From positions 1 through 64,000 of IMG/VR virus record IMGVR_UViG_3300042884_001293: DNA of 64,000 nt; one strand, given 5' to 3'. Shown here one piece after another: positions 3,240 to 61,777 of the stretch. Made by a program: the position numbers and the translations under genes. The notes beneath the pieces were generated by a model. The model was not told where the DNA came from and ran no database searches. It was given only the letters and a program-made list of their open reading frames with translations. This stretch comes from a virus. How positions within the stretch are numbered: the first letter of the stretch is position 1; each line of letters opens with the position of its first letter.

Positions 3240-3583
3240 GTATTCAAATTGAAGCGGAAAGGCTTACTGAGAAACATAAAAAAGCATTAATCCTAGAACT
3301 TGACGAATTACTAGAAAAATATCGTAAATACCCTGACGGATTCATTTTTTACTTTAGAGGCAAAGATGACGAGCTAGAAGAATGCAAGATTCTTAATGCG
3401 TATGTAGATTTTCAGCCAAACAAAAATATTCTTTTTGATTATTCAGGGTTTGCAATTTGGTATAGGTGTCACAGCCCTTATTGGTGTACCGAGGAAGGGA
3501 CTCATTACCCCATGACAGAGCAGCTTATCGATAGAGCTATCGAGAAATATGGATTACATAGCCCGACTACTACCAAAGCTTGA
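3236..3583 (+). CDS. hypothetical protein
   Basis: ATGA overlap with the preceding ORF (internal ATG of ORF 3215-3583). Confidence 0.45.
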   Translation: MSIQIEAERLTEKHKKALILELDELLEKYRKYPDGFIFYFRGKDDELEECKILNAYVDFQPNKNILFDYSGFAIWYRCHSPYWCTEEGTHYPMTEQLIDRAIEKYGLHSPTTTKA

Positions 3584-5008
3584 TTGACGATTAACAGGAG
3601 GCATTGACGCGATCGCATACCGTAAACAGTCGATGCCATGCGTCACCTGGTTATCGGCTTCTTCTTCTGTGATATTGCCATACTTATCCTTCTTGCGGTG
3701 ATACGATTGGCACTCCTCAAAGAACTGAGGCACTGTATCCACAATCTTGATCCGTTCGTGGTAGAAGTCGCTACTCATTAAGTCAACGCCCTTAATAAAG
3801 TCGTTTACCGCGCCCCTAACTTCTGAGCAGTAATTCTTAAATGGTTCTTTGAATACTTGCCCCTCTTTTGGTTTCCACACTCGTAATGATTTGATCGCAT
3901 CAGGTCGAGATGGATCACCAAAAGCGCGATTAACTTGCCATTTCATTGCTAATTTATGGCACTCGTATAAAAAATCATCTTCTAATATTGCTTGCCCCTG
4001 CATCGCTCTAGGGACACGCCACTCATCTACAACAAACCAGTGATAAAAGCCGTCTTTGATAAAAGCGCAAACTACCAAGGCTCTAGGATTTACCGCGCCC
4101 CAATCCACCGCTAATATACGATACGCAAAATCTTTAGGTAAGTCGCGATCGCTGATGATGTGCGATTCAGATAATGTCTCAAAGAATTGTCCCTCAAAAG
4201 TTTCAAATGATGCTTCCATCTCTTGACGGAATAAGCGGGGGGATAAGCTTTGTCTAAGCAGCTCAATATCTTCTGGCTTAAGGATCGGATTATCGGCACT
4301 CTTAAACTTAAACGCTTGCCATACCCTAGGATCGGCAACAAGTGCGTTTTGATAAGCCTCATAGGTATGATTAACTTTGCCCTTGGGAGTATAAGTGAAT
4401 AGCGCTGTACTGCCTTGCGTATCAGATAGCGCAGGTTGAATAATCTCTGGAAAAATACTTGCTTTCCAGTCTTGCCACTCATCACCCCCAAAATGCCATA
4501 GGCGCAAACCACGAGCGCGATCGCCGTCACCATCGTTAAGTCCCATGATCATTAGATCGGGCATATAGAACTTATACGGATCGGGGTTCTTGAAGGTAAT
4601 TGTAAATTCTGATTTACTAACATTCTCAACAGCTTTGTGATTGCGTAAGGTGTTTAGCAACTGCTTCCATAGCAGCCTACGAGCCATAACCAAGGTAGGA
4701 GCAGCTAACACCACTACAGGCGGCGCTACTGGGTTATATGGCGCACCAACCGCAACGCGCTCAAGGGCTTTGTATATCTGCAAGATGGTTTTACCAAAGC
4801 GCCGCCCTGATACTGCGATCGTGTATTTAGCTTGGCTATTGGCTATCGTTTGCTGTAGCGGATGTAGTTGGAGCTTCTTCTGCTGTTGCGAGTATGTCTG
4901 AGAACGGGTTTGCCTCTGTGCTATCTGAGTCTCTACCTTTTCCCAAGCTCTTTCCATCCGAGCCTGTGTCGCTGGTAAGAGTTCGAGGATCGGTGAGAAG
5001 GTAGCCAA
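3554..5008 (-). CDS. terL: terminase large subunit
   Basis: 484 aa. Walker A-like 'VSGRRFGKT'. C-terminal nuclease-type motifs 'LAVDWGAVNP', 'GDPSRPD' and 'HGIDCLRYAI'. It overlaps the upstream TerS-like ORF by more than 120 nt whichever ATG is used. Confidence 0.85.
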   Translation of the reverse strand: MATFSPILELLPATQARMERAWEKVETQIAQRQTRSQTYSQQQKKLQLHPLQQTIANSQAKYTIAVSGRRFGKTILQIYKALERVAVGAPYNPVAPPVVVLAAPTLVMARRLLWKQLLNTLRNHKAVENVSKSEFTITFKNPDPYKFYMPDLMIMGLNDGDGDRARGLRLWHFGGDEWQDWKASIFPEIIQPALSDTQGSTALFTYTPKGKVNHTYEAYQNALVADPRVWQAFKFKSADNPILKPEDIELLRQSLSPRLFRQEMEASFETFEGQFFETLSESHIISDRDLPKDFAYRILAVDWGAVNPRALVVCAFIKDGFYHWFVVDEWRVPRAMQGQAILEDDFLYECHKLAMKWQVNRAFGDPSRPDAIKSLRVWKPKEGQVFKEPFKNYCSEVRGAVNDFIKGVDLMSSDFYHERIKIVDTVPQFFEECQSYHRKKDKYGNITEEEADNQVTHGIDCLRYAIASMPPVNRQSSFGSSRAM

Positions 5009-5450
5009 GTTTTAATGCCTCATTTACAATTTTGTCAGGTGACCATGTATCAAGGTCTAATGCTGTACGTCCTATGCGTTGGATTGTAGATAGAGAGCCA
5101 GATAACAGGCTTATATCCTTTGGGGGTAGAAGCTCTTTTTTTAGCTTAGCTTCATTCAAATGACCTATAATTTGCCCTTGCAATGCCCTCGCAACAGTCA
5201 AGATATCAGTATCAAATTTAGTCTGTTCCCCCGCTAAGCTTGACACTTTCTCCTGCTTCGACTCTTGAGAGACGCGCCTTAGAAAGATTTTAGATTGCTC
5301 TACCCATTTATCTTTTGCGGATCTTTGCTGAATATAGTTGTAGTTTATGCCATACTTTGTAGCCAAACTTTGCAAAGATGGGCGCACATCATCGCTAGAG
5401 GCTTCTATATACTCCTTACTAATTTTTTCCCAATCGTGTTTTGTTGCCAT
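4836..5450 (-). CDS. putative terminase small subunit / DNA-binding packaging protein
   Basis: 204 aa immediately upstream of terL on the same strand. N-terminal HTH-like 'LQSLATKYGINYNYIQQRSAKDKW'. Confidence 0.45.
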   Translation of the reverse strand: MATKHDWEKISKEYIEASSDDVRPSLQSLATKYGINYNYIQQRSAKDKWVEQSKIFLRRVSQESKQEKVSSLAGEQTKFDTDILTVARALQGQIIGHLNEAKLKKELLPPKDISLLSGSLSTIQRIGRTALDLDTWSPDKIVNEALKLGYLLTDPRTLTSDTGSDGKSLGKGRDSDSTEANPFSDILATAEEAPTTSATANDSQ

Positions 5451-5507
5451 ATAAGCTAGATTACATCACCCTTATATTATTTTATCAGCTAGCTTATATT
5501 ATCTAGT

Positions 5508-5960
5508 TTAAATACCTAATGAACGACCGTAAACAGAAGGAGCTAGCGCCGCCGATCTCGCTTGTTGCGCCCTAGATTGCAATCCAAAACGTGAGGTTAC
5601 TTGATCACTTCCTACATTTCGTTGGATAGATCCTGTTGCAGTCCTTGTATTAGCCATGATCTTGCGTGTCGCGATCGCCCGTTGTTCTGGCGTTGAACTG
5701 GGATTTTTAAGAATAGCTTGATTTTTAGCAATATTAGCGGCACTAGCCCCAAACTTAGACTCAACACTACTACGCTGACCTACGGCGCTACGTTTAGCGG
5801 ATGATGCTGTAGCACTACCGCTAGAGCCTCGACCACCGCCCTTCTTGAATCTACCACTCATCTTAGAAGGATCGTTACCACCGTAGTATTGAATCCCGTC
5901 GCTATTGTCTAATGATTCCAACATAATCGACCTCGTTAATTTCATTATCATCATACTCAA
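5508..5960 (-). CDS. hypothetical basic low-complexity protein
   Basis: 150 aa, rich in S/G/A/R (KKGGGRGSSGSATASSAKRS). Overlaps the end of the radical SAM gene. Confidence 0.4.
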   Translation of the reverse strand: MSMMIMKLTRSIMLESLDNSDGIQYYGGNDPSKMSGRFKKGGGRGSSGSATASSAKRSAVGQRSSVESKFGASAANIAKNQAILKNPSSTPEQRAIATRKIMANTRTATGSIQRNVGSDQVTSRFGLQSRAQQARSAALAPSVYGRSLGI

Positions 5961-7146
5961 TCATAGTATGAGTCCATCCATCCGCGCCATAACATAGTAT
6001 AGGCAATTTATCCACATCATCTAATAAATAATTACCGTTGCTATCTACAGCATAGCTAAAAGCGGCTTTGTTGACAGGGTGAAACGGTACATTATGAGAC
6101 TTCAAAGAACATTTTAAAATCGTCTCAAATGTTGGATTTTTGGGGACTTTAAACCCTAATGCTTTTTCAGGACACATCCTAACATTGCTATCAATATAGT
6201 GATAATTTTGCGATGTGACAAAAGTTGGCAGTAAAGGAGTAAAGAACTCTACCCATTCCCGTTGTGTAAAAAACTCACGATTTAACGTAGCGCACCGATT
6301 AATAAATTGCTGCACAACTGGGAATAATTTTGGATACATTTTATAAGCATCAAAAAAGTTTGAATACCTACCGTTAGCAATACTGTAATTCTCTAACCCT
6401 ATTGATCTTGAATATTCCCTGCACATCTCAACAAATTCTTTCCTGTAAGGATCGCTATGTTTTTTCTTGAGGCAATCAGCAATCAAGTCTTCACCCAATA
6501 ATTTGCGATCGCGTTCTGGCATTACCTGTTTCTGCTTGGTGTTAATATGCAAATTCTCCATCCAAGTACCAAACACGCCGATCTCTTTTAGGTTGTCAAA
6601 AAATGGGATAGGGTCTAATAGCCAATCTGGTTCGCATGGATTACAGCCAACAATCACCGTATGACCTTTTGAGATTAATGCTTTTAACAACTCATAGCGA
6701 TGCTCTAAAGGCGGCGCACTAGGCTCTATAGCTTTGCGTGTCTCATCATCAGAGAACGAAATCGAAACATACCAAACACCGATCGGCATGAACTCTAATA
6801 CTTTTTCCCATCCTTTACCACCCTTGGTTTGCACTGAGTAAGGTATACCAAGCTCAGTCATGGTTTCCATAAAAGGAACCATTTGACGATAGTTTGAGGC
6901 ACTAAACGGATCTATGTGGTTACTGACAATTACAGGATAACCATCACGCAGCAAATAACCCTCAATGGTATTTCTGTTTTGATAATCAGCTAATAATCTT
7001 GAAACACCGTTAACGTCAAGTGTACGAGTAGGGGAATTAAGATTTGCAAAGCAATAAGGACAAGCGTGAGCGCACCAATTACCGCTTAGTTCTAATGGCG
7101 CGGGTATCTTGAGTAAACCACCGTAGAGAGGCTTTAATCCGTCCAT
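5902..7146 (-). CDS. radical SAM enzyme
   Basis: CX3CX2C cluster motif 'NWCAHACPYCFANLN' near the N-terminus. 414 aa. Resembles the SplB/COG1533-type layout. Confidence 0.7.
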   Translation of the reverse strand: MDGLKPLYGGLLKIPAPLELSGNWCAHACPYCFANLNSPTRTLDVNGVSRLLADYQNRNTIEGYLLRDGYPVIVSNHIDPFSASNYRQMVPFMETMTELGIPYSVQTKGGKGWEKVLEFMPIGVWYVSISFSDDETRKAIEPSAPPLEHRYELLKALISKGHTVIVGCNPCEPDWLLDPIPFFDNLKEIGVFGTWMENLHINTKQKQVMPERDRKLLGEDLIADCLKKKHSDPYRKEFVEMCREYSRSIGLENYSIANGRYSNFFDAYKMYPKLFPVVQQFINRCATLNREFFTQREWVEFFTPLLPTFVTSQNYHYIDSNVRMCPEKALGFKVPKNPTFETILKCSLKSHNVPFHPVNKAAFSYAVDSNGNYLLDDVDKLPILCYGADGWTHTMIEYDDNEINEVDYVGIIRQ

Positions 7147-7781
7147 AAATCTAATAGCGCCTCAAACGCAGCAGTATCATTTTCTATGCCTACGCTTTCC
7201 TTATACTCATTCCACCGTTTCATCGTGCCACTGCCAACGACTATCGGTATGGGTTGCTTATTGCCACCACTGCGATCGCTTGCGTAAGCGGGTAAGTCAT
7301 TATTATCTGAGAACTTGAGAAAGTCAGGCTCTTGATGGTCGATTATCTCTTGCTTTTGCTCTGCTAATTTTGCGAGTTCATCATCAAAATATAGATCGCT
7401 AATGTCGATTGTTTGTGCTGTTTCTTGCAGTAAATCAATATCTAGATCATAGTTAACTTCACTGATGCGATTATCTGCAATGCCTAACCTGATAGCCCTA
7501 GGATCGTCAGCAGTAGGAATATCAACCCGCCTAAGGATTACGGGGCGTGTACCGTCAATATCAAATACGATAGGCTCCGATTCATCACCAAAGCGCTCTT
7601 GTGCAACTTCTAAGCGCGCGCTTCCTGCAAAGGTTTCACCGTTAGCAGCCGTAGTTATTGCGCCCTGCCATCCATCCTTTGCAATGACGTTGTCTAGCAT
7701 CCCCATACCACGGGGGCGGTGTTTATTGAGATTTCTTTCTTGAGTACGAAAGTCTGAGAGCTTGGCTTTTTTCTTTGGCAT
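7134..7781 (-). CDS. ParB N-terminal-like domain protein (paralog 1)
   Basis: 'NLNKHRPRGMGMLDNVIAKDGWQGAITTAANGETFAGSARLEVA...LGIADNRISE' fits the ParB/sulfiredoxin-like pattern. Clear paralog of 8515-9075. Confidence 0.5.
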   Translation of the reverse strand: MPKKKAKLSDFRTQERNLNKHRPRGMGMLDNVIAKDGWQGAITTAANGETFAGSARLEVAQERFGDESEPIVFDIDGTRPVILRRVDIPTADDPRAIRLGIADNRISEVNYDLDIDLLQETAQTIDISDLYFDDELAKLAEQKQEIIDHQEPDFLKFSDNNDLPAYASDRSGGNKQPIPIVVGSGTMKRWNEYKESVGIENDTAAFEALLDLWTD

Positions 7782-7816
7782 ACAGTTAATTACTCCTGTA
7801 TGAATAATAACTTAAA

Positions 7817-7882
7817 GCGCTATGGTCGGACTCGAACCGCCATGCATTGAGGGGGACTCTTTGCAGTTCCATTCTATAGCGC
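7817..7882 (-). other. tRNA-like remnant (non-canonical)
   Basis: The minus strand reads GCGCTAT...GGCGGTTCGAGTCCGACC-ATAGCGC. It has a 7-bp acceptor-like closing stem and a T-loop GGTTCGAGTCC. It is only 66 nt, with no D arm or anticodon arm that I can fold. Confidence 0.3.
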
Positions 7883-8518
7883 AGGTTTAGGATATGGCTT
7901 CCGTAACGGTTCAATTTTATCACGCATTTCTGGAGTAAGTGGATATAAGTAGCGATGCTTAGACGATCCTTGTATCTTTTTTATGTTTGGATCTAAAACT
8001 TTTCTAGCCCAATCTTCTATGTTTTTTGCTGAAATGTTTTTTAATTTATGTGTTGATCTTGTACTTCTTAATGCCCTCCCATGCATCCTTTGACCATTGA
8101 CAATATACTCATCAGCAGCAATTGTTTTTCCTGTATAAATCCAGTTGCCAGCTTGATAAATTCCACCATGATGATTTTGATCGGGATCTGCAAAAGATGC
8201 AATCAAAATAATATTGGGACATCTTTTTATTAAAAACTTAAAGCATATAGAAATAATTCTGCTAACAGTCGTTTGATGATTTGTTAAAGCAACTCTAACC
8301 AGTTCGCATCCTTGAGTACTTTTTAATCCATAGGGATTAAATAACCCATTGTTAGCTCCGTCTCCAAAAATAACACAGCCAATAAAAATACTGTCTTCCC
8401 ATACTCCTATCTTAACCGTTTTTTGATTTGGAACACATTTAGAATAATGCCAATGTTCACAAGCATACTTAGCCGCTTCATGGCTACACCAATCAAGTTT
8501 AAGGATCGCTTTACTCAT
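7874..8518 (-). CDS. mom: Mom-family DNA (adenine) modification protein-like
   Basis: 'EAAKYACEHWHYSK', 'LIASFADPDQNHHGGIYQAGNWIYTGKT' and 'KHRYLYPL' follow the conserved blocks of the Mu Mom / acyltransferase-fold family. Confidence 0.65.
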   Translation of the reverse strand: MSKAILKLDWCSHEAAKYACEHWHYSKCVPNQKTVKIGVWEDSIFIGCVIFGDGANNGLFNPYGLKSTQGCELVRVALTNHQTTVSRIISICFKFLIKRCPNIILIASFADPDQNHHGGIYQAGNWIYTGKTIAADEYIVNGQRMHGRALRSTRSTHKLKNISAKNIEDWARKVLDPNIKKIQGSSKHRYLYPLTPEMRDKIEPLRKPYPKPAL

Positions 8519-9075
8519 AGCAACTTAATAAAATCATGTCCACACTGAGGGCATTTGCAATCAATCTCTTTAGGCTGTATCTGGTCTAGCTTGCCCTGTT
8601 CATCCATTCCTACAGGTTCAAAGTCTGGTGTTTCTTCTTCCTGATCCCTCGCAACCAACGCCGCTAACTCGTCTTCATAATACAAATCGTCAAGCTGAAT
8701 AATCTCATCGTTGATCTCAATTAATAGCTCAATATCAGGATCGTAGTTAAGCTCAGATATCCGATTATCAGCTACTCCCAACTTAACCGCTTTCGGGTCG
8801 CTAGCTGTGGGGATATCATCACGAATTACGATGACGGGGCGATCGCCAGTCGTATGCACTGTAATAGGCTCTATCTCTTGACCAAAGCGATCGTATGAGA
8901 CTTCTAAACGCGCCGATCCTGCGAACGTTTCGCCATTTGCAGCCGTGGTAATTGCACCGATCCATCCTGAATTTTCGATGGTATCGCTCAAGGCTTTCAT
9001 ACCACGATTTTTATGGCGGTTGACGTTTTTGGATTGGACTGTAAAATCCGATAACTTAGCTTTACTTTTCGCCAT
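8515..9075 (-). CDS. ParB N-terminal-like domain protein with C-terminal zinc ribbon (paralog 2)
   Basis: N-terminus is near-colinear with 7134-7781 (KAKLSDF..Q..N.N.H..RGM...ITTAANGETFAGSARLEV). C-terminal 'CKCPQCGHDF'. Confidence 0.5.
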   Translation of the reverse strand: MAKSKAKLSDFTVQSKNVNRHKNRGMKALSDTIENSGWIGAITTAANGETFAGSARLEVSYDRFGQEIEPITVHTTGDRPVIVIRDDIPTASDPKAVKLGVADNRISELNYDPDIELLIEINDEIIQLDDLYYEDELAALVARDQEEETPDFEPVGMDEQGKLDQIQPKEIDCKCPQCGHDFIKLL

Positions 9076-9261
9076 AAATCAACATACGAATTTACAGCGA
9101 TTCTAGCATTATCGCGCCCTTTGATGGCGATATTGCAAGATTACTGATATTAAAAAGTGGTAAAATATTAGTGGCGATCGCGTATTCCCGTACCGATCAC
9201 CTGATTAACCTTATCTTTAAGCGCAGGTCAATATGAATAGTTTAGCAAATGTGAAACACCT

Positions 9262-10017
9262 TTACTCCACCCATTCCCATTTCATACCAGCGCTTTTACC
9301 ACCCCTAGCGATCGCTTGGGATATGCAGTTATGCTTAACAAAATTAGCTCTAGCAGCTTCTTTTACACCAGAATAAACTCTAATGCCATCAGGAGCATAA
9401 CAACGCACAGCACGGCGAAAACCTCTAGTTGACGGCTCTGAGTTTTTGACTTTTTCGACTAGCTCTGCATCTTCTAGCAGCCAGAACAAGTTATCGCGAT
9501 CGCAGTTAGCAAAATACGAGGGATTATTCAGGACTAAGGCGATCGCGTCTTTACGTTTAACTGCGTTCTGATTTCTGGCAATTTTGCGGGGTTGCAATTT
9601 CCCATTGCGGACAAATGAGCGAACTCGATCCATTGATAAGCCTAACCCTCTCGACAGTTCGTACACAGTAAAATTATCTTCAGTGCATTTGCGGCTCAAA
9701 GGGGAATTAGATGTCATGCGATGGATTTGAACTTCTATCGCAGTATCTGTCCGTTCTGGGTAGCCTTGTTTTTTAGACCATTTCTTAAAGGATTTAACCA
9801 ATACAGGAAAAGGCAAAACACCAAGATTATCTTCAAGATATTCGATCTCTTCTTGTTTCCATGCCGATCCGCCTTTTTTCTCTGTGGAAAACTTTGCTGC
9901 ACACGATCTAGTACAGCAAAGCCGTTTTGTTTTACCTTCATCAAATTCTTTCTTGCAAAATATACAGTTTTTCATATTTACTGTCTGCCATATCTTACTC
10001 TGATACTTTTGCAACAT
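9262..10017 (-). CDS. zinc-finger / HTH DNA-binding protein
   Basis: N-terminal 'CIFCKKEF...RLCCTRSC'. C-terminal NUMOD1-like 'YSGVKEAARANFVKHNCISQAIARGGKSAGMKWEWV'. An alternative ATG at 9975 removes the overlap with the upstream gene. Confidence 0.45.
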   Translation of the reverse strand: MLQKYQSKIWQTVNMKNCIFCKKEFDEGKTKRLCCTRSCAAKFSTEKKGGSAWKQEEIEYLEDNLGVLPFPVLVKSFKKWSKKQGYPERTDTAIEVQIHRMTSNSPLSRKCTEDNFTVYELSRGLGLSMDRVRSFVRNGKLQPRKIARNQNAVKRKDAIALVLNNPSYFANCDRDNLFWLLEDAELVEKVKNSEPSTRGFRRAVRCYAPDGIRVYSGVKEAARANFVKHNCISQAIARGGKSAGMKWEWVE

Positions 10018-10714
10018 AGCTAACCAAATCTAGCAAGCGATTACCACGCTTAGCAGCGATCACAGCCTCACATGCTGCGTACTCACTGATGCACTTAGCT
10101 AATTTGTCAGAGCGATAGTTGCCACTATTAATCTCGGTTTTTGAGAATCCCATAGCCATAAGCTCCTCGTACCGTGCGAGTAAATGCGTAAAGGCAGATC
10201 GATATATATGCAACGTATCGAGCTCAAATTGCACTGGGAAATAATCGCGATTAGTTGCCTCTAGCGCCCAAGGCAAAATATGTTTTTGCCCTGATTCCGC
10301 AACGCAAATAGTAAAGGGCGGCTTTGGCGGATCAAGCAACCAGGTCCTGATTTGAGCGCGTGTGGGGAGGCGATCAACTATTTCTAGCGTGTTCCCCCCC
10401 TCAGTATGTTGACCGCCAAATTTAGGATAAGAACCATACGCATTATCAGCAGAAAGGAGCCATGACCAGCCCCTAGCAAATAATGTGCTGTATTTTCCCT
10501 TCGCTTCATTCCAATAAAAAGCCCTTAACGGAATCACCCATGCACAGCGATCGCATAGATGCTTAGACTCAGGGCATCTAGCGCTACTATGTGCAGTAAA
10601 TGAATCTTTGAGAACTAACGGGTTATCAGCGTTAGGGGCGGCGCAAAGGTAGCAGTAATTATTATTATTCATGGCAAAAGCCATCCTATAGGATGGCTGA
10701 TTAAGTTTATTCAA
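9995..10714 (-). CDS. Csf1-like (type IV Cas8-like) zinc-finger protein, tentative
   Basis: 239 aa. 'CYLC'...'CPESKHLCDRC' zinc-ribbon arrangement, then 'LDPPKPPFTICVAESGQKHILPWA'. Size and motif order match my recollection of Csf1. Not verifiable here. Confidence 0.3.
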   Translation of the reverse strand: MNKLNQPSYRMAFAMNNNNYCYLCAAPNADNPLVLKDSFTAHSSARCPESKHLCDRCAWVIPLRAFYWNEAKGKYSTLFARGWSWLLSADNAYGSYPKFGGQHTEGGNTLEIVDRLPTRAQIRTWLLDPPKPPFTICVAESGQKHILPWALEATNRDYFPVQFELDTLHIYRSAFTHLLARYEELMAMGFSKTEINSGNYRSDKLAKCISEYAACEAVIAAKRGNRLLDLVSYVAKVSE

Positions 10715-10732
10715 TGTCCGTGGTCGCCACCT

Positions 10733-11191
10733 CTAGTCATAAGTTGGCAGAAAAAAAGCTTTTGTAGTGCAATCGGATGTCATTTTACGAACTTGTGAGA
10801 TCGCCTCGTTTAAAGTTTTCCCGTAGCCATTAAAACAGCCTTCCTGAATCTTCCACATCCCATACCGCGACAACCCTTCTTCACAAGTAAATTTTATGGA
10901 GCGATGATATTCTTTGCCATTCTGTAGGTCTAACGCAATAAAATCTTGTGTGCTTCCATAAAAATCGGTTTTCACAGAAAAAATATTCCCAAAAGCTTGA
11001 TTAACCTCTTGGCTGAATTGATTAATGTTCATCTCAATGTCCATCTCCTTAATTACCTTCTTAGATACAAAACGAGCGCCCTTACCTTGAACTACAACAA
11101 AAAGCACATTCTTCCATTCTTCAGCTCTCTTGATTTGGTTGGGAGAGACGTTTAAAGCGGTTGCGATTTGTGCGATTTGGTTGGCGTTCAT
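10733..11191 (-). CDS. hypothetical protein
   Basis: First gene behind promoter family B copy a; no motif. Confidence 0.55.
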   Translation of the reverse strand: MNANQIAQIATALNVSPNQIKRAEEWKNVLFVVVQGKGARFVSKKVIKEMDIEMNINQFSQEVNQAFGNIFSVKTDFYGSTQDFIALDLQNGKEYHRSIKFTCEEGLSRYGMWKIQEGCFNGYGKTLNEAISQVRKMTSDCTTKAFFLPTYD

Positions 11192-11262
11192 GGCTTTGTT
11201 TAACTCGATAACCTATTGTTGATCGAGTCTATAGGTTTTGTCAATAGTAAAACCAAAAATAT
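11192..11262 (-). promoter_or_regulatory. promoter family B, copy a
   Basis: The reverse complement reads TTGGTTTTACTATTGACAAAACCTATAGACTCGATCAACAATAGGTTATCGAGTTAAACAAAGCC-ATG. About 90% identical to 62461-62535. -35 TTGACA at 11244-11239. Confidence 0.6.
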
Positions 11263-11348
11263 TTAAACTCTTAATATTTGTTTACAAAGTAGGGTATCGG
11301 CGCACAAAATTAGGGTCTTCAAAAAAGCTGAGCTGGTAGCTGCTTAAT

Positions 11349-11380
11349 AAAAAAGCCCGATCAAATGATCGGGCTTTTTT
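11349..11380. terminator. orphan hairpin terminator in a divergent intergenic region
   Basis: AAAAAGCCCGATC-AAAT-GATCGGGCTTTTTT. Confidence 0.5.
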
Positions 11381-11436
11381 ATGTTAATATAGCTTCACCA
11401 CTGGTTAATTTTGATCTCTGACCTTCAAAATTAACG

Positions 11437-12405
11437 TTGCTCGAAAGGGTGCGTGGAGATCCAACTGCTACTGACAGTCGAATGACACAAGTTTATCACA
11501 GAATCGTCGAAATTTATAGCAGTTTTGCTCAGTGTTGGAAAATCCCTCACTTAGTGAAGATGTTATATCTTTTTGTGCGTTCGCATGATAAACAGCATCA
11601 TGTCCCTAAATACCAATCAGGTGAAGCAGGAAAAGGCGCTGGTAAGGTTAGTTTAGACTTACCAATGCTTGCCCGTACATTTAATCGCAGTGTTGCCACA
11701 ATTAAAAAAGCCCTTAGATTAGCGTATAACCTAGGGGTTTTTTGGCTGCTAGAGATTAAAGGCGATGGCGCTAGGCTTATCTATACTTCACTCAAGAAAG
11801 TCTGCTCAAAGCTAAATATCAGCAATTTGGGCGCGATCTTTGAGATGGACTCTGTAGATATGCCTAACCAAGTGCGATCGCAAGTAGTGCAAGCGGTAAC
11901 AGCACAAAAGCAAGAAGCGTCATTTTATGCTGCAAAACGAGAAACCAAGGAGAATAATAAAAAATATAAAGGCAAGAAATTAGCAAAGCACGTCAAGAAA
12001 TCCCAGAATATTTTTAAGCACGCATCTACAATTATGCTTTCGGGTGTCAAGGGTTTAAAAATTAAAGGCAGATTTCTACTCGTTCATCGCTTATTTGTGC
12101 CATACGGTGTTTCTCAAGATTTAGTAGCTGATTTAGTCAGTCGTACCCCTCAAACCGTGCGTAAGCATCTCAAAGGTATTAAGCGTTATCAGGTGTGTGA
12201 ACCTTGCAATGATGCTATTAATACCCCTGAATTTTGGTTAACCCATAATTTAGGTGAGAAGCATTACATGAAGTTTGATGGCGATCGCACCCTATATCAA
12301 GCTAGAACAAATATCTACAACCTTGAGAGCAAATCAATGCGCCGTATGCATTTAAGGAAACGAGTAAGCAAATATACCCGCCAAGTAGCACAATCCCCTG
12401 CCTAG
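11437..12405 (+). CDS. putative winged-helix DNA-binding protein (possible replication/regulatory initiator)
   Basis: 322 aa, basic, with HTH-like 'RSVATIKKALRLAYNLG' and 'VSRTPQTVRKHLKGI'. ORF-track start is TTG; the first ATG is at 11482. Confidence 0.45.
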   Translation: MLERVRGDPTATDSRMTQVYHRIVEIYSSFAQCWKIPHLVKMLYLFVRSHDKQHHVPKYQSGEAGKGAGKVSLDLPMLARTFNRSVATIKKALRLAYNLGVFWLLEIKGDGARLIYTSLKKVCSKLNISNLGAIFEMDSVDMPNQVRSQVVQAVTAQKQEASFYAAKRETKENNKKYKGKKLAKHVKKSQNIFKHASTIMLSGVKGLKIKGRFLLVHRLFVPYGVSQDLVADLVSRTPQTVRKHLKGIKRYQVCEPCNDAINTPEFWLTHNLGEKHYMKFDGDRTLYQARTNIYNLESKSMRRMHLRKRVSKYTRQVAQSPA

Positions 12406-14495: not shown

Positions 14496-14496
14496 A

Positions 14497-14568
14497 TCGG
14501 AATGGTTGGAATCGAACCAACTACTTTCGGTTCCCAAAACCGACCGTCTACCAATGGCTTACAATCCG
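14497..14568 (-). tRNA. tRNA-Pro (anticodon UGG), slightly degenerate
   Basis: The minus strand reads CGGATTG-TA-AGCC-ATTGGTA-GACG-G-TCGGT-TTTGGGA-ACCGA-AAGTA-GTTGG-TTCGATT-CCAAC-CATTCCG-A. The anticodon and T arms are perfect. There is one mismatch in the acceptor stem and a weak D stem. No encoded CCA. Confidence 0.6.
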
Positions 14569-14678
14569 AGGTGCGATCGCTTTATCCGCTGCCATCAACA
14601 ATCTACACGGTGCGTAAATCTCAGGCTTAGGAGCGATCGCGTTTACAATATTAGCATTAAGCTTTATCGGTTGCCATC

Positions 14679-17211: not shown

Positions 17212-18129
17212 TTACTGACCTATCAGCATTTGCCAGTTTTTGACATCTCGAAGGTACTCAATAGCTTTTGCTGTGTGTTCATCTGGTATATAGGTAGTCG
17301 TCACCGTGCGGGGTAATTCTGCAAGCAAGCTGACACCAAATTTAGACTCAATCTCTTCTAGTACACGTTGGACATCAGCACCAGATTTAAAAGTGATACC
17401 AAATCGCTTTTTCATGTAGTCCTTGAGTTGACCACAAGTTTGACCACTGTATTTAGTCTGCTGATTGTGGCGATCGTCGATGACTTCGATTACTGGCTTC
17501 TCAACTTCTACGATCGCATTATCGCGACCCATCAAACATAAAGTTGTAGGAACTCCATGCAATGCAGTCATCGAACTCATGCGATCCATACGTTGAATCT
17601 CAAGCCTCATATTTTCGTTAATGAGTTCAAGTTCACGAAGGCGATCGTTTTGTTGAGGGACTAGCATTGCCACATCAAGCAAAAGTGTCCTGACTTGTTT
17701 GGCGATCGCAGAATCTCGCAGTAACATACCTAATCTAAGGGCGGCGCGAGGTGTCCAAATAACTAGAGATGAAGTAAAAGAGGTGATGGACAGATTGTCC
17801 ATACCTTGATTCCATAAGGCTTTGACCTCTTTAGCATTGTATTTACGCAACCCGTCGGATTCTAATTCGCCTTTATGGCGTTGCGAAATTTTCTGCACAG
17901 TATCAGTAGAGACTTCGTAGTAATCTGCCATCTGTTGAGTAGTAGCCACGCCTGTACCTTGCCACATCGCCATAACTAGAGACTTAGCTCTATTCAGATA
18001 CTCTAGCGATGCATCCTGACTGAGATCAATTAGCTTCTCATTACGAGCGGATACAGATTCGATTAAAATAAGATCGTTCATATTGCCTAATATTCCTAGG
18101 TAATGTGGATTAAGCGATCGCCTTTCCAA
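17212..18129 (-). CDS. DNA-binding protein (ORF6N/antirepressor-like), tentative
   Basis: 'ATTQQMADYYEVSTDTVQKISQRHKGELESDG' HTH-like segment. A lone minus-strand gene. Confidence 0.35.
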   Translation of the reverse strand: MERRSLNPHYLGILGNMNDLILIESVSARNEKLIDLSQDASLEYLNRAKSLVMAMWQGTGVATTQQMADYYEVSTDTVQKISQRHKGELESDGLRKYNAKEVKALWNQGMDNLSITSFTSSLVIWTPRAALRLGMLLRDSAIAKQVRTLLLDVAMLVPQQNDRLRELELINENMRLEIQRMDRMSSMTALHGVPTTLCLMGRDNAIVEVEKPVIEVIDDRHNQQTKYSGQTCGQLKDYMKKRFGITFKSGADVQRVLEEIESKFGVSLLAELPRTVTTTYIPDEHTAKAIEYLRDVKNWQMLIGQ

Positions 18130-20529: not shown

Positions 20530-21981
20530 TTACTCACCAACGAGACGAGCGATGATTTTTTTAGCTTGATCCAGCTCCTCTTTAAGCTCAATCACCTCAG
20601 TAGTAATATCCATTGGCTTGCAGTTTTCTGGGAGCTTAAGGTATTTGGAAATCACTTCTAACTGAAAGTAGCCTTTGTAATATTTCTTTTTTTCTTGCTT
20701 TAACTCCATGATCGCAAAACAAATGTCAGGTTGCTTGGCATCGCTAGGCAAGTCCAAGAATGAGGCAATACTAGATAGACAGCGATTTAGTCTCTCAATT
20801 TCGCGATCCTTGTCTCCTGTAAGTTGTTCAATCTTGGCGATCGCCTCTTCATTGCTAATATCTTTACCAACTGAATCAATTAAAAGCTGTTTAACCTCAA
20901 GCGCAAATTGAGTAAACTCATGATCGCGTTCCCAGTGTTTGTGACGATCTATTAAATGCTCTACAAAGCTGATAGCGTCATCGTCAGGGAACTCATCAAT
21001 AGACGGATATTTGTCTTTCCTGACCCCTTCATATAGCGCTTGTTTGATCTGACTGCGAAACTTGATTTCTTCCTGATCATAGGCTTGCTTTTGGGCTTGT
21101 AAATCTACTGAGTTTAGCAAATCATTAATAATGCGACTGCCATAAATCTCGTACTCACTACGCTTTCCGAAAAGAGCTAAGTGAATATCGCATAATCGGC
21201 GGAATCCAGTAACAACGATCTTTTCTTCTTGCTTGAATCTGCGATGGTCAAGACATTCTGCATTAGCCTTATTTAAAATGTCGGTAATCTCACCTAGTAG
21301 CTGTGATTGCTCTGATGATTCTTTGATTTTAGCGATCGCTTCATCATCAGATAGCTTGCCCTGATTTAACACTTCTTTGATTGCCATAACAAATCTATTG
21401 GATTGATTTTGATCCCATCTCCTAGCTTTGATTGCCATAACAAATCTATTGGATTGATTTTGATCCCATCTCCTAGCTTTGATTGCTGCAATAGTTTCGT
21501 CATCACTCAAACCTTCGCCAAATAAAAACTTGACCTGATCGCGAAACTCATTAGCAGCCGTGAGATCGTTATACATCTTTTCAATCCTAGCCAACATTTG
21601 ATCATCGCCTAAGACGGTCAGAATCTCATCAGGATTATCATCCAATAATACGTTTACTCGACGACTGAAACTGCAAGGGCGGCGGTTATCAATGGCAAGA
21701 TTTTCTGGTTCTGATGTTTTCACAATGCGAACATCTTTTAACCTTTCAAACCCATTCGCCCATAGTTGCAAGCGATCGCAAAGATGATCGAGGATGCCTC
21801 GATAATAGGAGCGCTCTGTTTTTAGATTGTGGATTTCTGCAATAGTTGCGTCATCGGATTGGATGCCTAATGCTAAAGCTTTCTTTACTTGATCGCGAAA
21901 TGACATAGCTTGTATTGCGTTCTCATGTATTTGATGATTTTCTGGAATAAGAAACCCATACTCATCATTATTCTTAACCAT
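20530..21981 (-). CDS. repeat-containing protein (periodic 'F-R-x-Q-[VI]-K ... SDDE-[AT]-IA-x-I' modules)
   Basis: 483 aa. At least five copies of the module (SDDATIAEI, SDDETIAAI, SDDEAIAKI, DDDAISFV, SNEEAIAKI) plus an exact 17-aa tandem duplication. Confidence 0.6.
   Translation of the reverse strand: MVKNNDEYGFLIPENHQIHENAIQAMSFRDQVKKALALGIQSDDATIAEIHNLKTERSYYRGILDHLCDRLQLWANGFERLKDVRIVKTSEPENLAIDNRRPCSFSRRVNVLLDDNPDEILTVLGDDQMLARIEKMYNDLTAANEFRDQVKFLFGEGLSDDETIAAIKARRWDQNQSNRFVMAIKARRWDQNQSNRFVMAIKEVLNQGKLSDDEAIAKIKESSEQSQLLGEITDILNKANAECLDHRRFKQEEKIVVTGFRRLCDIHLALFGKRSEYEIYGSRIINDLLNSVDLQAQKQAYDQEEIKFRSQIKQALYEGVRKDKYPSIDEFPDDDAISFVEHLIDRHKHWERDHEFTQFALEVKQLLIDSVGKDISNEEAIAKIEQLTGDKDREIERLNRCLSSIASFLDLPSDAKQPDICFAIMELKQEKKKYYKGYFQLEVISKYLKLPENCKPMDITTEVIELKEELDQAKKIIARLVGE
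21379..21480. repeat. perfect 51-bp tandem duplication (2 copies)
   Basis: GATTGCCATAACAAATCTATTGGATTGATTTTGATCCCATCTCCTAGCTTT occurs twice back to back. In frame it gives AIKARRWDQNQSNRFVM x2. Confidence 0.95.
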
Positions 21982-28501: not shown

Positions 28502-28984
28502 TTAGCCGCCACTACAAATCTTGAATACGGTTGTAATAGAAACATTGTAATCACTGGCTATGGTTCTATGTATCTCATTGTTAGATCGGCGTGTTTTAAT
28601 GTCATCTATATCAGATTCTGTCAGCTTATAATGTCTTGCGTGTTGTATTGGAGGCGCATCGTTGTTTACATAAGCAAGATTTGAAGCATGATCGTTTAAC
28701 TTGTTTCCATCAAGATGAATTAGTTTAGGTAAATTATCAGGGTTGCTAACAAAAGCTTGTGCAACTAAAAACGAAATCAAATGATGCTCACGCTTCTCCC
28801 CCGCCAACAGTATCACTGCATAAGCCTTACAACCTTTATTGTAAACAGGCTTTCTAATGGATTCTTGGATTGTGCGTGTAGAGCCATTTTTTGATGCCAC
28901 TTGCCGCTCTACACTTTTTATCCGACCATAGTTTGATACTTGATAATGCCCTTCAAAACCTTTGATATCAGTCCAAACTTCCAT
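28502..28984 (-). CDS. HNH homing endonuclease (NUMOD4 + HNH_3)
   Basis: 'EVWTDIKGFEGHYQVSNYGRIKSVER' (NUMOD4) and 'IHLDGNKLNDHASNLAYV' (HNH). Confidence 0.85.
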   Translation of the reverse strand: MEVWTDIKGFEGHYQVSNYGRIKSVERQVASKNGSTRTIQESIRKPVYNKGCKAYAVILLAGEKREHHLISFLVAQAFVSNPDNLPKLIHLDGNKLNDHASNLAYVNNDAPPIQHARHYKLTESDIDDIKTRRSNNEIHRTIASDYNVSITTVFKICSGG

Positions 28985-31720: not shown

Positions 31721-32581
31721 CTAAGCCCTCTTCATCGCTACGATTTTGTCAGAATCAAAGTTAAATCGATACTGCTTATCCCTTGGGATAACTTGATGTT
31801 TACGCAATAGGTCAAGAATGCGATCCAATCCCTTCCAAGAGAATACAGGGCTAAATCTCATGCGTCCATCAAAACATTGACCATCACGAATCGTAGCAAG
31901 CCCTTCATTTTGCCAACTGGCATAAGGTAAATTAGTGCCATCGCTATTAAATAGTACTTTCTCCTTACGCAAAATGTCGTAAAGCTTGCGAACAGAAAAC
32001 TTGGAAATATTCAACTGCTTAACAATCTCTTCCCCAGTCATCCATCCATCGGTAGCCAAAATCAAATCATAGCGATCGACTTTTGGTTCTAAAGTCTGTA
32101 CTTCGATTTCTAGGGATTGATTGGCGGCGATCAATTTCTGGTTAGCTTCAGCAAGTACCTTTTTATCTTTCTCAGATTGTAGATGTGCCTCTAGAGCCTC
32201 AATATAGTTTTGAGGTAGTGCGGGTTGAGATGGGGCTAACTCATACTTGCCAGTTTTGCGGATGATTGGCAAGATTTGCTCACATACCCAATCCTGAAAA
32301 GGTTCAGCTTGAGGTTTGCGAGATTTCATGGTTAAGCGGTACAAACCAGACTCTGAAACCGCTAAAAGCCTTGTGGTGTCTGGATCATCACTTGAAGTTA
32401 TACCCATCTCATGCAAATTTAAAACTTGCTTTTCGCGATCTTTTAATGGGTTACAAGCCTTGCTGACATTCCTTATATCTAAAATGTCACATACGTCCTG
32501 AGCGACAAACCAAGGCTCGTTATTAATGGAAACAATACGAACCTGTTGAGAATTAAATGCAAATTGAGTTAAACTTGTCAT
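31721..32581 (-). CDS. antirepressor (Bro-N domain + KilAC-like C-terminus)
   Basis: 'FAFNSQQVRIVSINNEPWFVAQDVCDILDIRNVSKA' is a Bro-N signature. The C-terminal HTH-like segment is 'MTGEEIVKQLNISKFSVRKLYDILRKEKVL'. Confidence 0.75.
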   Translation of the reverse strand: MTSLTQFAFNSQQVRIVSINNEPWFVAQDVCDILDIRNVSKACNPLKDREKQVLNLHEMGITSSDDPDTTRLLAVSESGLYRLTMKSRKPQAEPFQDWVCEQILPIIRKTGKYELAPSQPALPQNYIEALEAHLQSEKDKKVLAEANQKLIAANQSLEIEVQTLEPKVDRYDLILATDGWMTGEEIVKQLNISKFSVRKLYDILRKEKVLFNSDGTNLPYASWQNEGLATIRDGQCFDGRMRFSPVFSWKGLDRILDLLRKHQVIPRDKQYRFNFDSDKIVAMKRA

Positions 32582-55453: not shown

Positions 55454-55607
55454 CACAGAAAAACAGCCAGAAAAACAGCGTATCCTGATCGCCATTTCAT
55501 CACAGCAGATGGAAGATCGGTATAGGGTAGAAGCTTCTCGCGCAAAAGCTCAGAAGATGGGTGCTAGTTCTAGGATTTTGAGGTTATTTGAAAATGACGC
55601 TAGTTGA
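55446..55607 (+). CDS. hypothetical small protein
   Basis: 53-aa ORF below the cutoff (MSDTEKQPEKQRILIAISSQQ...), overlapping both neighbours. Confidence 0.35.
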   Translation: MSDTEKQPEKQRILIAISSQQMEDRYRVEASRAKAQKMGASSRILRLFENDAS

Positions 55608-56136
55608 CCACGAAATCGAAAAGCTTTGCGAAGAAAAGGGTGTTATCGTGCCATTTGACAAAGCAATGCTTAACCCACAATCACTTGATGTGCGGATAGG
55701 CTACACGCTGAAAACTGAGAACAACTGGCTTAAACGATGTCTAACAGGTCAAGAGTTTACTACTCACGACTTAACCAATTACTCAGAATCAAACCCGTTT
55801 TGGGTATCGCCACTAAGTTTTATTCTGACTTGTACCTACGAGACTTTCAATATGCCGAGTAATTACTCAGCAGAGTTTAGACTTAAGTCAAGTAGAGGGC
55901 GATCAGGATGGGGTCACGTTTTGGCAGTATGGATTGATGGTGGTTTTAATAATTCAAAGCTGACCTTAGAGTTATTAAACCATCGTATTTGGGCTTGGCA
56001 ACCTATTTATCCCATGATGCGAATCGGACAAATCGTATTTGCTGAGACGGCTTACCCAAGGCATGATTACTCAGAAACAGGACGGTATAACAACGATTTG
56101 GATACGCAACCAGCAAAACCAGAGAAGAGAATATAA
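55594..56136 (+). CDS. dcd: dCTP deaminase / dUTPase-superfamily protein
   Basis: 'LVDHEIEKLCEEKGVIVPFDKAMLNPQSLDVRIG', 'RLKSSRGRSGW' and 'MRIGQIVF...TGRYNND' are colinear with the Dcd blocks. Confidence 0.75.
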   Translation: MTLVDHEIEKLCEEKGVIVPFDKAMLNPQSLDVRIGYTLKTENNWLKRCLTGQEFTTHDLTNYSESNPFWVSPLSFILTCTYETFNMPSNYSAEFRLKSSRGRSGWGHVLAVWIDGGFNNSKLTLELLNHRIWAWQPIYPMMRIGQIVFAETAYPRHDYSETGRYNNDLDTQPAKPEKRI

Positions 56137-57706: not shown

Positions 57707-58237
57707 ATGTATGGAATAGAAACGGAAGACAGGGTTACAGCTTTAGCCAGTGCGCTTAGTTATTGGGTTTTTCGCTGTAGAGACAAGGGCAAAAGCCCTG
57801 CCATGGGCTTAAGAACATGGGAATATTTTCAAAGCAGTATCCAAAATGCTGCTATTCCCTCTCGCAATATCGACGACTACATTGAGAATTTAGCCAAGAA
57901 GCTTATTGTTGCACACCTCAACCCAAAAGAATGGACTCGCATAATCGCGCCAAAACAAGTGGTTTTACGGGCTACTGTGAATGATGATGGCAGTATGGGA
58001 GACATTCAGCAAATTGATAGCGATCAAAATATTGATCTTTGGTGGTTGGGATGGAACGACATTTTAGCCAAATTGAAACATACGCACGGGATAAGCGATC
58101 GCCATATCCTCAGTTTGTGTAAATCAAAACCGCACATTATTACTACTTTCTGTCGTGTTCGCTTTGAAAGCGATCGCGCTTTGAATATTCCAGAAGAAAC
58201 AGAAAACACTCTAGATGTAGAGGCTAACAATGCTTAA
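57707..58237 (+). CDS. small helical protein in the cas11 position (tentative small subunit)
   Basis: 176 aa; overlaps the Cas7-like gene by 8 nt. Called by position only. Confidence 0.2.
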   Translation: MYGIETEDRVTALASALSYWVFRCRDKGKSPAMGLRTWEYFQSSIQNAAIPSRNIDDYIENLAKKLIVAHLNPKEWTRIIAPKQVVLRATVNDDGSMGDIQQIDSDQNIDLWWLGWNDILAKLKHTHGISDRHILSLCKSKPHIITTFCRVRFESDRALNIPEETENTLDVEANNA

Positions 58238-61747: not shown

Positions 61748-61777
61748 AGGATTGTCAAATGTTAGGGGCTTTTAAAA

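Follow-up and report, generated by a model that had tools for sequence, protein, structure and literature searches.

Two tandem ParB-enzyme modules, one with a Mom-like protein and one with a radical SAM enzyme, directly upstream of the terminase genes of an IMG/VR phage

Do a Mom-like DNA-modification protein, a radical S-adenosylmethionine (SAM) enzyme and two ParB-like proteins that are encoded side by side in a phage genome constitute a single pathway? The question is raised by a stretch of 64,000 nt of the IMG/VR virus record IMGVR_UViG_3300042884_001293 (positions 1 to 64,000, hereafter the window), for which a preliminary description made from the sequence alone had proposed a DNA hypermodification cluster in which the Mom-like gene is bracketed by duplicated ParB-like genes and coupled to the radical SAM enzyme (rSAM). 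Our analysis shows instead two independent modules, each made of a ParB-like gene and an enzyme gene, arranged in tandem directly upstream of the terminase genes. The genes concerned are the following.

8515-9075, minus strand: ParB-like 1, 186 amino acids (aa), in which an acidic linker joins the ParB/Srx N-terminal (CTPase-fold) domain to a tail with a CxCxxCxH zinc knuckle at the C-terminus
7874-8518, minus strand: Mom-like GNAT-fold DNA-modification enzyme, 214 aa (Pfam PF25680, PHROG 1384)
7782-7873, minus strand: spacer of 92 nt between the Mom-like gene and ParB-like 2, belonging to an inserted cassette
7134-7781, minus strand: ParB-like 2, 215 aa, in which an acidic linker joins the ParB N-domain to a conserved C-terminal tail of ~45 aa
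5902-7146, minus strand: rSAM, 414 aa (Pfam PF04055), with one CxxxCxYC motif
5508-5960, minus strand: small basic protein rich in Gly and Ser, 150 aa, conserved at its N-terminus and variable in its tail
4836-5450, minus strand: terminase small subunit TerS, 204 aa (PHROG, E=4e-5)
3554-5008, minus strand: terminase large subunit TerL, 484 aa (PHROG, E=4e-31)

The order ParB-Mom-ParB-rSAM-150 aa-TerS-TerL lies in a co-directional string across 3.5-11.2 kb, to which a Csf1-like gene and a gene for a 251-aa protein, both upstream of ParB-like 1, also belong. All four open reading frames (ORFs) reported in the preliminary description are present on the minus strand at the positions it gave, and the motifs that it quoted, CAHACPYC, HHGGIYQAGNWIYTG and KHRYLYPL, were found in them. 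Its description of the genes as overlapping applies to two junctions, with 4 nt shared by ParB-like 1 and Mom and 13 nt by ParB-like 2 and rSAM, but not to the third, where a 92-nt gap separates Mom from ParB-like 2. With TerS and TerL directly downstream, the locus can be regarded, as had been proposed, as a probable DNA-modification gene cluster of a phage. A contig assembled independently (L190) has the four genes in the identical order, which rules out an assembly artefact. At the nucleotide level, neither the region nor the first 25 kb matched any isolated phage, and the window phage has no close cultured relative among them. PADLOC gave no match for the four genes, which are therefore not a known defence system, and a broad Pfam scan of the remaining window genes revealed no additional DNA-modification enzyme. 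Promoter and terminator counts over positions 3400-11400 were no higher than in shuffled sequence and are uninformative on operon structure.

The division into two modules is seen in sibling loci (L009-L013), whose rSAM is 89-98% identical to that of the window and which carry a single ParB-like gene followed by rSAM, with no Mom. In blastn comparisons, the lone ParB gene of these siblings aligns first to window positions 9204..9043, corresponding to the 5' end of ParB-like 1 and its upstream sequence, and then to 7782..7162, the body of ParB-like 2. This split match implies that the window holds an insertion of ~1.3 kb within the ParB N-domain, made up of the body and zinc tail of ParB-like 1, of Mom with the spacer behind it, and of the 5' end of ParB-like 2. 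The junction between the modules is located just downstream of the spacer, at the 5' end of ParB-like 2, with sibling homology starting at 7782. Rather than being bracketed by a duplicated gene, the Mom cassette thus lies inside what is one ParB gene in the siblings, and the presence of two ParB copies is explained by the fact that either enzyme comes with a ParB partner of its own. The cassette would have entered this lineage by recombination inside the ParB N-domain, giving rise to the apparent duplication. Within the spacer, the stretch GGCGGTTCGAGTCCGACC resembles a tRNA T-arm; neither ARAGORN nor Rfam gave a tRNA or Rfam match in these 92 nt, so it is at most a degenerate remnant, and the promoter and terminator signal of the spacer did not rise above shuffled expectation. 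The position of the Mom cassette is held in siblings L010 and L012 by T5orf172/MUG113 endonuclease-like genes, which are also resembled by the N-terminus (M.RSLNPHYLG) of a 305-aa ORF of the window at 17212-18129 (minus strand).

The distribution of the two enzymes over other genomes also separates them. We sampled 100 rSAM loci from viral contigs and GTDB genomes, 96 of them with non-identical rSAM sequences, and Mom was present in only 1 of 96 other rSAM loci (L073), while the window-type rSAM occurred in none of the 80 Mom loci on viral contigs. Among 50,697 isolated-phage records, the Mom-like protein matched 147 isolated phages by tblastn; the rSAM gave three weak matches, all to Acidianus two-tailed virus, an archaeal virus, and to none of the bacterial-phage genera among the Mom-positive records. 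A single four-gene pathway with Mom coupled to rSAM is difficult to reconcile with these data.

They bear in particular on a split Elp3-like system, a possibility near to that of the preliminary description, in which rSAM would make an acetyl-coenzyme A (acetyl-CoA)-derived radical for the GNAT-fold Mom, the two enzymes jointly producing carbamoylmethyl-adenine with the ParBs as shared scaffolds. Elp3, the tRNA carboxymethylase, joins rSAM and GNAT domains for the chemically analogous cm5U/ncm5U, and the carbamoylmethyl group of the Mom product is found likewise in the ncm5U that derives from Elp3; moreover, a trans-acting rSAM partner was considered by the authors of the Mu Mom study (PMC7261163). 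Genes for both kinds of enzyme do occur together, in one co-directional string, in the window, L190 and L073. Unlike in Elp3, however, rSAM and Mom are unfused, with a ParB gene between them, and they are independently distributed across phages: the siblings have a nearly identical rSAM without Mom, 95 of the 96 other rSAM loci lack Mom and all 80 Mom loci lack this rSAM, and the weak archaeal-virus matches of rSAM fall outside the Mom-positive genera. Each enzyme has a ParB of its own, the rSAM-linked one with its own tail type, and Mu Mom is functional in Escherichia coli without a phage rSAM (PMC7261163). On the distribution data we reject Elp3-like coupling, which we consider highly improbable.

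The first of the two modules is recognisable by its enzyme. The Mom-like protein matches Pfam PF25680 over its full length (E=8.8e-47; 159.8 bits, cut-off 27.1), with residues 7-211 aligned to profile positions 3-202 of 202, and PHROG 1384, 'Mom-like DNA modification protein' (E=6e-54), so that the earlier Mom assignment is borne out by hidden Markov model (HMM) searches far above the cut-off. It is 51% identical to the Mom-like protein of phage phiEf11 and 23% identical to Mu Mom. Mutagenesis of the latter showed that residues H48, Y49, R101, S114, D139 and Y149 are required, be it to bind acetyl-CoA or iron or to handle the substrate (PMC7261163). Residues were mapped taking into account that the NC_000929 annotation is shifted by +10 relative to the published Mu Mom numbering, and all six are invariant in an alignment of the Mom proteins of Mu, the window, phiEf11, Microbacterium phage Appa, Arthrobacter phage Martha and L073. 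The catalytic core is thus intact, and despite its low identity the window protein shares with Mu Mom the Pfam family and the functional residues, including those for acetyl-CoA and iron binding and R101. Judging from the fold and the catalytic residues, module 1 most likely installs a Mom-type adenine adduct.

The pairing of Mom with a ParB has precedents. In the top-ranked Mom records that we inspected (phiEf11, Appa and Martha), a ParB-like gene lies immediately upstream, overlapping or abutting in most, and ParB with a zinc tail followed by Mom is therefore a recognisable module that was annotated before in isolated phages. Mom loci of 3 isolated phages and of 80 viral contigs were analysed; a ParB-like match was obtained in 11 of them, and these had the highest Mom scores against a profile of the ParB-linked clade, which is that of phiEf11 and of the Microbacterium and Arthrobacter phages. 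Many Mu-type Mom loci have, instead of a ParB-like gene, an overlapping ORF of ~62 aa, which in Mu is Com. The two arrangements are alike in that the gene overlapping mom from upstream ends in, or is, a small zinc-binding element; in the window, however, the gene overlapping the start of mom encodes the 186-aa ParB-like protein with its zinc knuckle and not a Com zinc-finger translational activator. A CPxCG(H/Y) tail is common to all the Mom-linked ParBs that were read (phiEf11, Appa, Martha, L073, L163, L170, L178, L182, L183 and P0351). In phage Appa, a tRNA gene is found directly downstream of Mom.

If each enzyme has its own ParB, the nature of these proteins becomes central to the question. 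Their assignment to the ParB family holds. Searched as single proteins, neither ParB-like 1 nor ParB-like 2 matched Pfam ParB_N (PF02195) at E<=0.1. The first matches PHROG 620 (E=1.5e-13) and the second PHROG 498 and 620, with E=6.8e-9 for its ParB-like match, and both match PHROG 498, a ParB-methyltransferase family, through its ParB part. When a profile of 40 ParB-like proteins was compared with the PDB, it aligned to the CTP-binding N-domain of Spo0J, ParB and Noc (E=2e-12 to 1e-8). These alignments end near profile position 94-100, and one at 137, leaving the helix-turn-helix (HTH) domain unmatched by the profile; in accordance with their length of only 186 and 215 aa, the central parS-binding HTH of partition ParBs was not encountered in the proteins. 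No ParA appeared among the neighbouring genes scanned (3554-11191), a scan that included no search aimed at ParA. The arginine of the Box II GxxR motif, which belongs to the nucleoside triphosphate (NTP) pocket, is kept in both window ParBs as G-S-A-R.

The two ParBs are 59% identical over 155 aa, so the colinear N-terminal regions of roughly 40 aa noted earlier understate their paralogy. The zinc ribbon that had been described is a Cys/His tail, a short C-x-C-x2-C-x-H knuckle at the extreme C-terminus. ParB-like 2 ends instead in a tail of ~45 aa with the consensus PLAIVL..W..K..G..D, which is kept in most rSAM-linked ParBs across phyla. The beta-alpha-alpha pattern of this tail would fit a ribbon-helix-helix fold; profile searches of PDB and Pfam gave nothing significant, and this idea, which we set aside, remains a guess.

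The tails tend to differ where the partner enzymes differ. The ParB of L004 is 96% identical to ParB-like 1 over aa 1-141 and wholly divergent thereafter, and the gene that comes after it encodes a Tet_JBP dioxygenase. Close homologues of the ParB N-domain (~70-80% identical) with other tails precede different DNA-modifying enzymes: Mom in P0351, a TET-associated glycosyltransferase in P0340, and in P0335 a C5-methyltransferase followed by an Asn-synthase-like amidotransferase and then a SAM methyltransferase. In addition, fusions of ParB with N6/N4-methylases adjoin the ParB-rSAM pair in L029 and are found ~5 kb upstream in the same locus in L081. From these comparisons, the C-terminal ParB tail tends to co-vary with the partner enzyme, and the ParB N-domain would fit the role of a generic partner of DNA-modifying enzymes; a functional link of the ParB-like genes to the enzymes is supported by the gene organisation. 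In L194 (JGI 3300080854 contig, 4001-7665), the gene for a C5-cytosine methylase stands behind a ParB-like gene whose tail is of the CPxCG type; next come genes for an Asn-synthase-like glutamine amidotransferase and for a SAM methyltransferase, and then two more ORFs of 204 and 494 aa that are TerS/TerL-like in size and have no Pfam match. This string looks like a candidate 5mC-derived hypermodification cluster.

An experimental precedent for such partnerships is available. The phage thymine dioxygenase 5mYOX176 needs ParB176 on double-stranded DNA, both the N- and C-domains of the ParB are required and the pairing is cognate-specific, with the C-domain as a determinant (O'Toole et al., PNAS 2026, PMC13229309). 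The window ParBs resemble ParB176 as short, HTH-less ParB-like proteins with an N-terminal NTP-binding fold and a C-terminal domain, encoded directly upstream of an enzyme of post-replicative DNA modification and in frequent co-occurrence with terminase genes, and the nearly identical N-domain of L004 precedes an enzyme of the Tet_JBP family. They differ in their tails, which are a zinc knuckle and the PLAIVL..W..K..G..D sequence, and in their partners, a GNAT-fold Mom and a radical SAM enzyme rather than iron- and 2-oxoglutarate-dependent dioxygenases, for which dependence on ParB would hold by analogy. The ParB domain is also shared with the fusions of ParB to DNA methyltransferases (PHROG 498; PMC12704722), although in the window ParB and enzyme are separate polypeptides.

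The second module, ParB-rSAM, recurs widely. A ParB HMM was built iteratively from the window proteins, and a ParB was counted if co-directional and <=1.3 kb upstream of rSAM, with the count restricted to the 78 non-identical loci that have >=700 nt of upstream sequence. Such an HTH-less ParB was found in 63 of the 78, conserved across divergent loci and abutting or overlapping rSAM in 42, often by 4 nt. Downstream, TerL lies <=3.5 kb from rSAM in 55 of 75 loci, followed by portal genes; these terminases belong to two unrelated families, T4-like and lambda gpA, and to phages of several bacterial phyla. Clustering of the neighbourhoods revealed no conserved candidate substrate gene besides ParB and terminase. 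ParB-rSAM is thus a conserved pair that is widespread in phages, and in its organisation it looks like an undescribed DNA-modification system. The pair is undescribed in the literature searchable as full text, a reach that does not extend to the 2013 catalogue of ParB-terminase loci. According to the summary in PMC4738411 (citing Iyer, Zhang, Burroughs & Aravind, NAR 2013), the role predicted for 'ParB-terminase large subunit' loci is to modify the DNA of the phage while it is being packaged. The order there, ParB followed by a DNA-modifying enzyme and terminase, is that of the window, which differs from the loci as summarised there in having two modules in tandem. A different neighbour is seen in the prophage region of Oculatella sp. 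LEGE 06141 (L006), where an ADP-ribosyltransferase-family gene (9219-9872; Pfam ART / ADPrib_exo_Tox) abuts the 3' end of rSAM in the string integrase - ParB - 199 aa - rSAM - ART.

Proximity to the terminase genes could also be explained if the ParBs were packaging or partition factors or nucleases, for example recognising pac sites, that have nothing to do with the enzymes and adjoin them at a shared insertion hot spot. The locus does abut the terminase genes, some rSAM loci have no ParB, and members of the ParB superfamily can be nucleases or NTPases (PMC10853773). We nevertheless consider this explanation very unlikely, given the translational coupling by 4-nt overlaps across dozens of divergent loci and the tendency of the tail to change with the downstream enzyme while the N-domain is still 96% identical. 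ParB-methyltransferase fusions (PMC12704722) and the experimentally shown dependence of a phage dioxygenase on its ParB (PMC13229309) point in the same direction.

What, then, does the radical SAM enzyme act on? Its assignment as a radical SAM protein, already proposed in the preliminary description, is secure, with a score against PF04055 just above the cut-off (30.7 bits, cut-off 29.5) and an AlphaFold2 model (pLDDT 90.6, pTM 0.90) that matches radical SAM structures. Foldseek gave 73 PDB matches at E<=1e-3 and all 50 of the 50 listed are radical SAM enzymes, the top ones being the pyruvate formate-lyase activating enzyme (PFL-AE), spore photoproduct lyase (SPL) and viperin (TM ~0.44). In 35 aligned homologues, C25, C29 and C32 of the CxxxCxYC motif are the sole invariant cysteines; there is thus no auxiliary cluster, and no SPASM/twitch domain was found in the family. 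Some homologues are interrupted at this very motif: in P0159 and P0189, an insertion of ~340 aa stands exactly before the third cysteine of CxxxCxxC, in L073 the ORF interrupting the cluster motif (6138-8170) carries an HNH_3 domain, and NCBIfam holds a model for an 'intein-containing Rv2578c family'. The presence of inteins within the cluster motif indicates that the site is functionally critical.

The enzyme belongs to a family of considerable size, with ~120 clusters of relatives in a word-indexed search and at least 353 clusters at 50% identity in a full HMM scan (E<=1e-30), and this family has no characterised member. Its nearest curated relatives are the SplB-like proteins Rv2578c and PA0069, and JGI labels its members 'DNA repair photolyase'. 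The matches to NCBIfam models are weak and all far below the cut-offs: 35 of 35 members match Rv2578c, 32 of 35 PA0069 and 3 of 35 the SPL model (TIGR04070 among the SplB-like families tested, E>=2e-5). The best score for a SplB-like family was 1e-17, with cut-offs of 360-430 bits, and the window rSAM scored 28.7 bits against 430 for Rv2578c and 15 against 360 for PA0069. A search of PDB sequences with the family profile gave no meaningful match, SPL included.

Among radical SAM enzymes, SPL has DNA itself as its substrate, and the window enzyme could be an SPL-like repair lyase that reverses a UV or dehydration lesion of tightly packed capsid DNA. Besides the SplB-like relatives, the members matching the SPL model and the place of SPL among the top structural matches, this possibility is favoured by a radical SAM core whose single CxxxCxxC cluster is unaccompanied by auxiliary cysteines, a trait shared with H-abstraction chemistry of the SPL type, and by the origin of several cellular loci in cyanobacteria and other light-exposed taxa; the small basic proteins nearby also loosely recall spore DNA-coating proteins. 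On the other side, every family score is far below its cut-off, the C-terminal ~150 aa are distinct from those of SPL and SplB-like proteins, and a fourth conserved cysteine that could serve as H-donor is missing, although the position of the H-donor residue varies among true SPLs. Its phage-borne genes are linked to ParB and terminase and are grouped with late packaging genes rather than with early or repair genes, and the ParBs of close relatives all accompany modifying and not repair enzymes. We regard a repair function as unlikely.

We regard it as similarly improbable that the substrate is a protein or a nucleotide; candidates would be the adjacent Gly-rich protein, some protein of the virion or of packaging, and an NTP bound in the ParB fold. 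The small basic protein deserves attention in this respect. Its N-terminus, SLDNSxGxQYYGGNDPxKMxGRxKKGG, is conserved, and the protein is rich in Gly, Ser and Lys with hypervariable tails; one to three paralogous copies flank rSAM in the siblings L009-L013, another is found in L004 (7705-8001), and small ORFs of similar composition lie between ParB and rSAM in many distant loci. Its only Pfam match was a sub-threshold one to DUF1542 (E=0.0065), and it had no match in PHROG or PADLOC. It is possible that it is an accessory of the rSAM module or an unrelated packaged protein, and its pattern recalls, by analogy, peptides in which a leader precedes a variable core, or internal proteins targeted to the capsid. 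A substrate of either kind, protein or nucleotide, would further agree with PFL-AE and viperin being among the best structural matches, with the permanence of rSAM in the terminase-portal block where ParB is absent, and with the binding of CTP, ATP or GTP by ParB folds (PMC12704722). However, most loci have no such small ORF and their ParB and rSAM genes overlap directly, the SPASM/twitch domain or auxiliary cluster typical of peptide maturases is lacking, and the conserved neighbourhood is limited to ParB and terminase. The cluster motif, the fold and the gene linkage of rSAM are established by these analyses; its most likely substrate would be DNA.

The account that we think probable as a whole is therefore that of two self-contained modules of a ParB and a DNA-modifying enzyme, placed side by side at the terminase locus and working independently. 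Each ParB-like protein would load or activate its cognate enzyme on double-stranded phage DNA, as suggested by the analogy with the phage thymine dioxygenases and by gene linkage. In module 1, the ParB with the zinc-knuckle tail and Mom would place an adduct on N6 of adenine, carbamoylmethyl or related, that blocks restriction. In module 2, the ParB with the 'PLAIVL' tail would serve rSAM, whose single [4Fe-4S]/SAM site is predicted to generate a 5'-deoxyadenosyl radical; this radical may abstract hydrogen from a base or sugar of the phage DNA and so bring about a post-replicative modification around the time of packaging.

Several observations weigh against this account. There is no direct evidence of contact between rSAM and DNA; its best structural matches include the protein-activating PFL-AE and the nucleotide-modifying viperin, at the TM of ~0.44 given above, and for its C-terminal ~150 aa no relative was recognised. 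Mu Mom functions without a ParB. About 19% of the rSAM loci lack an adjacent ParB, and in the ParB-less loci L014, L016, L018 and L058 rSAM lies between a Mu-like TerL and the portal gene, which makes the link to packaging at least as strong as that to ParB. In L073, ParB, Mom and rSAM follow one another with one ParB only, so that two enzymes could share one ParB. There are exceptions to tail specificity, since the CPxCG tail also occurs on a C5-methylase-linked ParB, and the structure model of ParB-like 2 (pLDDT 55, from a shallow alignment) was too poor for a fold search. Finally, several distant rSAM-linked ParBs do not have the NTP-pocket arginine of Box II, which is compatible with the little effect that mutations of the ParB NTP site had in the 5mYOX176 study (PMC13229309).

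The preliminary description had also read the window as carrying layered DNA modification, on account of C5-methyltransferase, dCTP-deaminase-like and CysH-like genes elsewhere in the stretch. All of these genes exist, and one of them falls in a different context, together with a gene just upstream of the ParB/Mom cluster, as follows.

9262-10017, minus strand: protein without assigned function, 251 aa
9995-10714, minus strand: Csf1-like protein, 239 aa
50476-51519: C5-methyltransferase
55588-56136: dCTP-deaminase-like protein
57707-58237, plus strand: Cas11
58230-59435, plus strand: Csf2/Cas7
59428-59805, plus strand: GIY-YIG endonuclease gene, inserted
59789-60487, plus strand: Csf3/Cas5
60475-61170, plus strand: CysH-like PAPS-reductase-family gene
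61157-61747, plus strand: unassigned gene, 196 aa
61778-62359, plus strand: Cas6

Type IV-B CRISPR-Cas systems comprise csf1, csf2, csf3 and cas11 with a signature accessory cysH-like gene, and have neither a CRISPR array nor cas6 (PMC8175902). The csf1 homologue of the window is full-length (PADLOC Csf1_0_IV, E=1.2e-26) and kept in the siblings, and no CRISPR array was found within the 64 kb. Together with csf1, the genes at 57707-62359 would constitute a phage-borne type IV-B-like CRISPR-Cas gene set, which departs from type IV-B in having a Cas6 gene and in the detachment of csf1, ~47 kb away. Lying inside this type IV-B-like operon, the CysH-like gene is not a layer of DNA modification.

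Some further features of the window were recorded. The region at 11250-11450, between the divergent genes 10733-11191 (minus strand) and 11437-12405 (plus strand), gave several sub-threshold Rfam matches to attenuator/leader elements and small RNAs on both strands; this pattern suggests a strong symmetric hairpin, which may be a bidirectional terminator or an operator. The one tRNA gene of the window, tRNA-Pro(TGG), is located at 14496-14569 (minus strand). In the ORF at 20530-21981, encoding a 483-aa protein, a perfect 51-nt tandem duplication (21375-21486, minus strand; 2.2 copies) repeats the peptide IKARRWDQNQSNRFVMA. A NUMOD4 homing-endonuclease-like gene (28502-28984) and a Bro-N/ANT antirepressor-like gene (31721-32581) were also found, both on the minus strand.

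What appears to be new at this locus, as far as the literature searchable as full text goes, is the ParB-rSAM-terminase module; ParB-Mom was known from annotation, and ParB-dependent modification from experiments with dioxygenases. That ParB-rSAM is the first radical SAM system to modify double-stranded phage DNA post-replicatively, with a ParB-fold loader and at packaging, is a tentative proposal to which we would give somewhat less than an even chance. If true, it would represent a new class of DNA hypermodification chemistry, for instance one that forms a C-C adduct or rearranges a base or sugar by radical chemistry, and would be present in hundreds of phage lineages with hosts among the cyanobacteria, Bacteroidota, Proteobacteria, Chloroflexota and others.

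To our knowledge, the chemistry of Mu Mom has never been reconstituted in vitro, and the ParB-linked Mom clade with its ParB offers a fresh route to that end. The locus also shows a route of cassette exchange, by recombination within the conserved ParB N-domain. More generally, our comparisons suggest a rule by which a DNA-modifying enzyme can be recognised from a small ParB-fold protein whose tail matches the partner; it fits Mom, TET/JBP, a glycosyltransferase, methyltransferases and this uncharacterised radical SAM family. Phage DNA modifications defeat restriction and CRISPR and are a source of biotechnology tools. If rSAM modifies DNA, radical chemistry would join the repertoire of post-replicative hypermodification, and a function would be provided for at least 353 clusters that are now labelled 'DNA repair photolyase' or 'hypothetical'.

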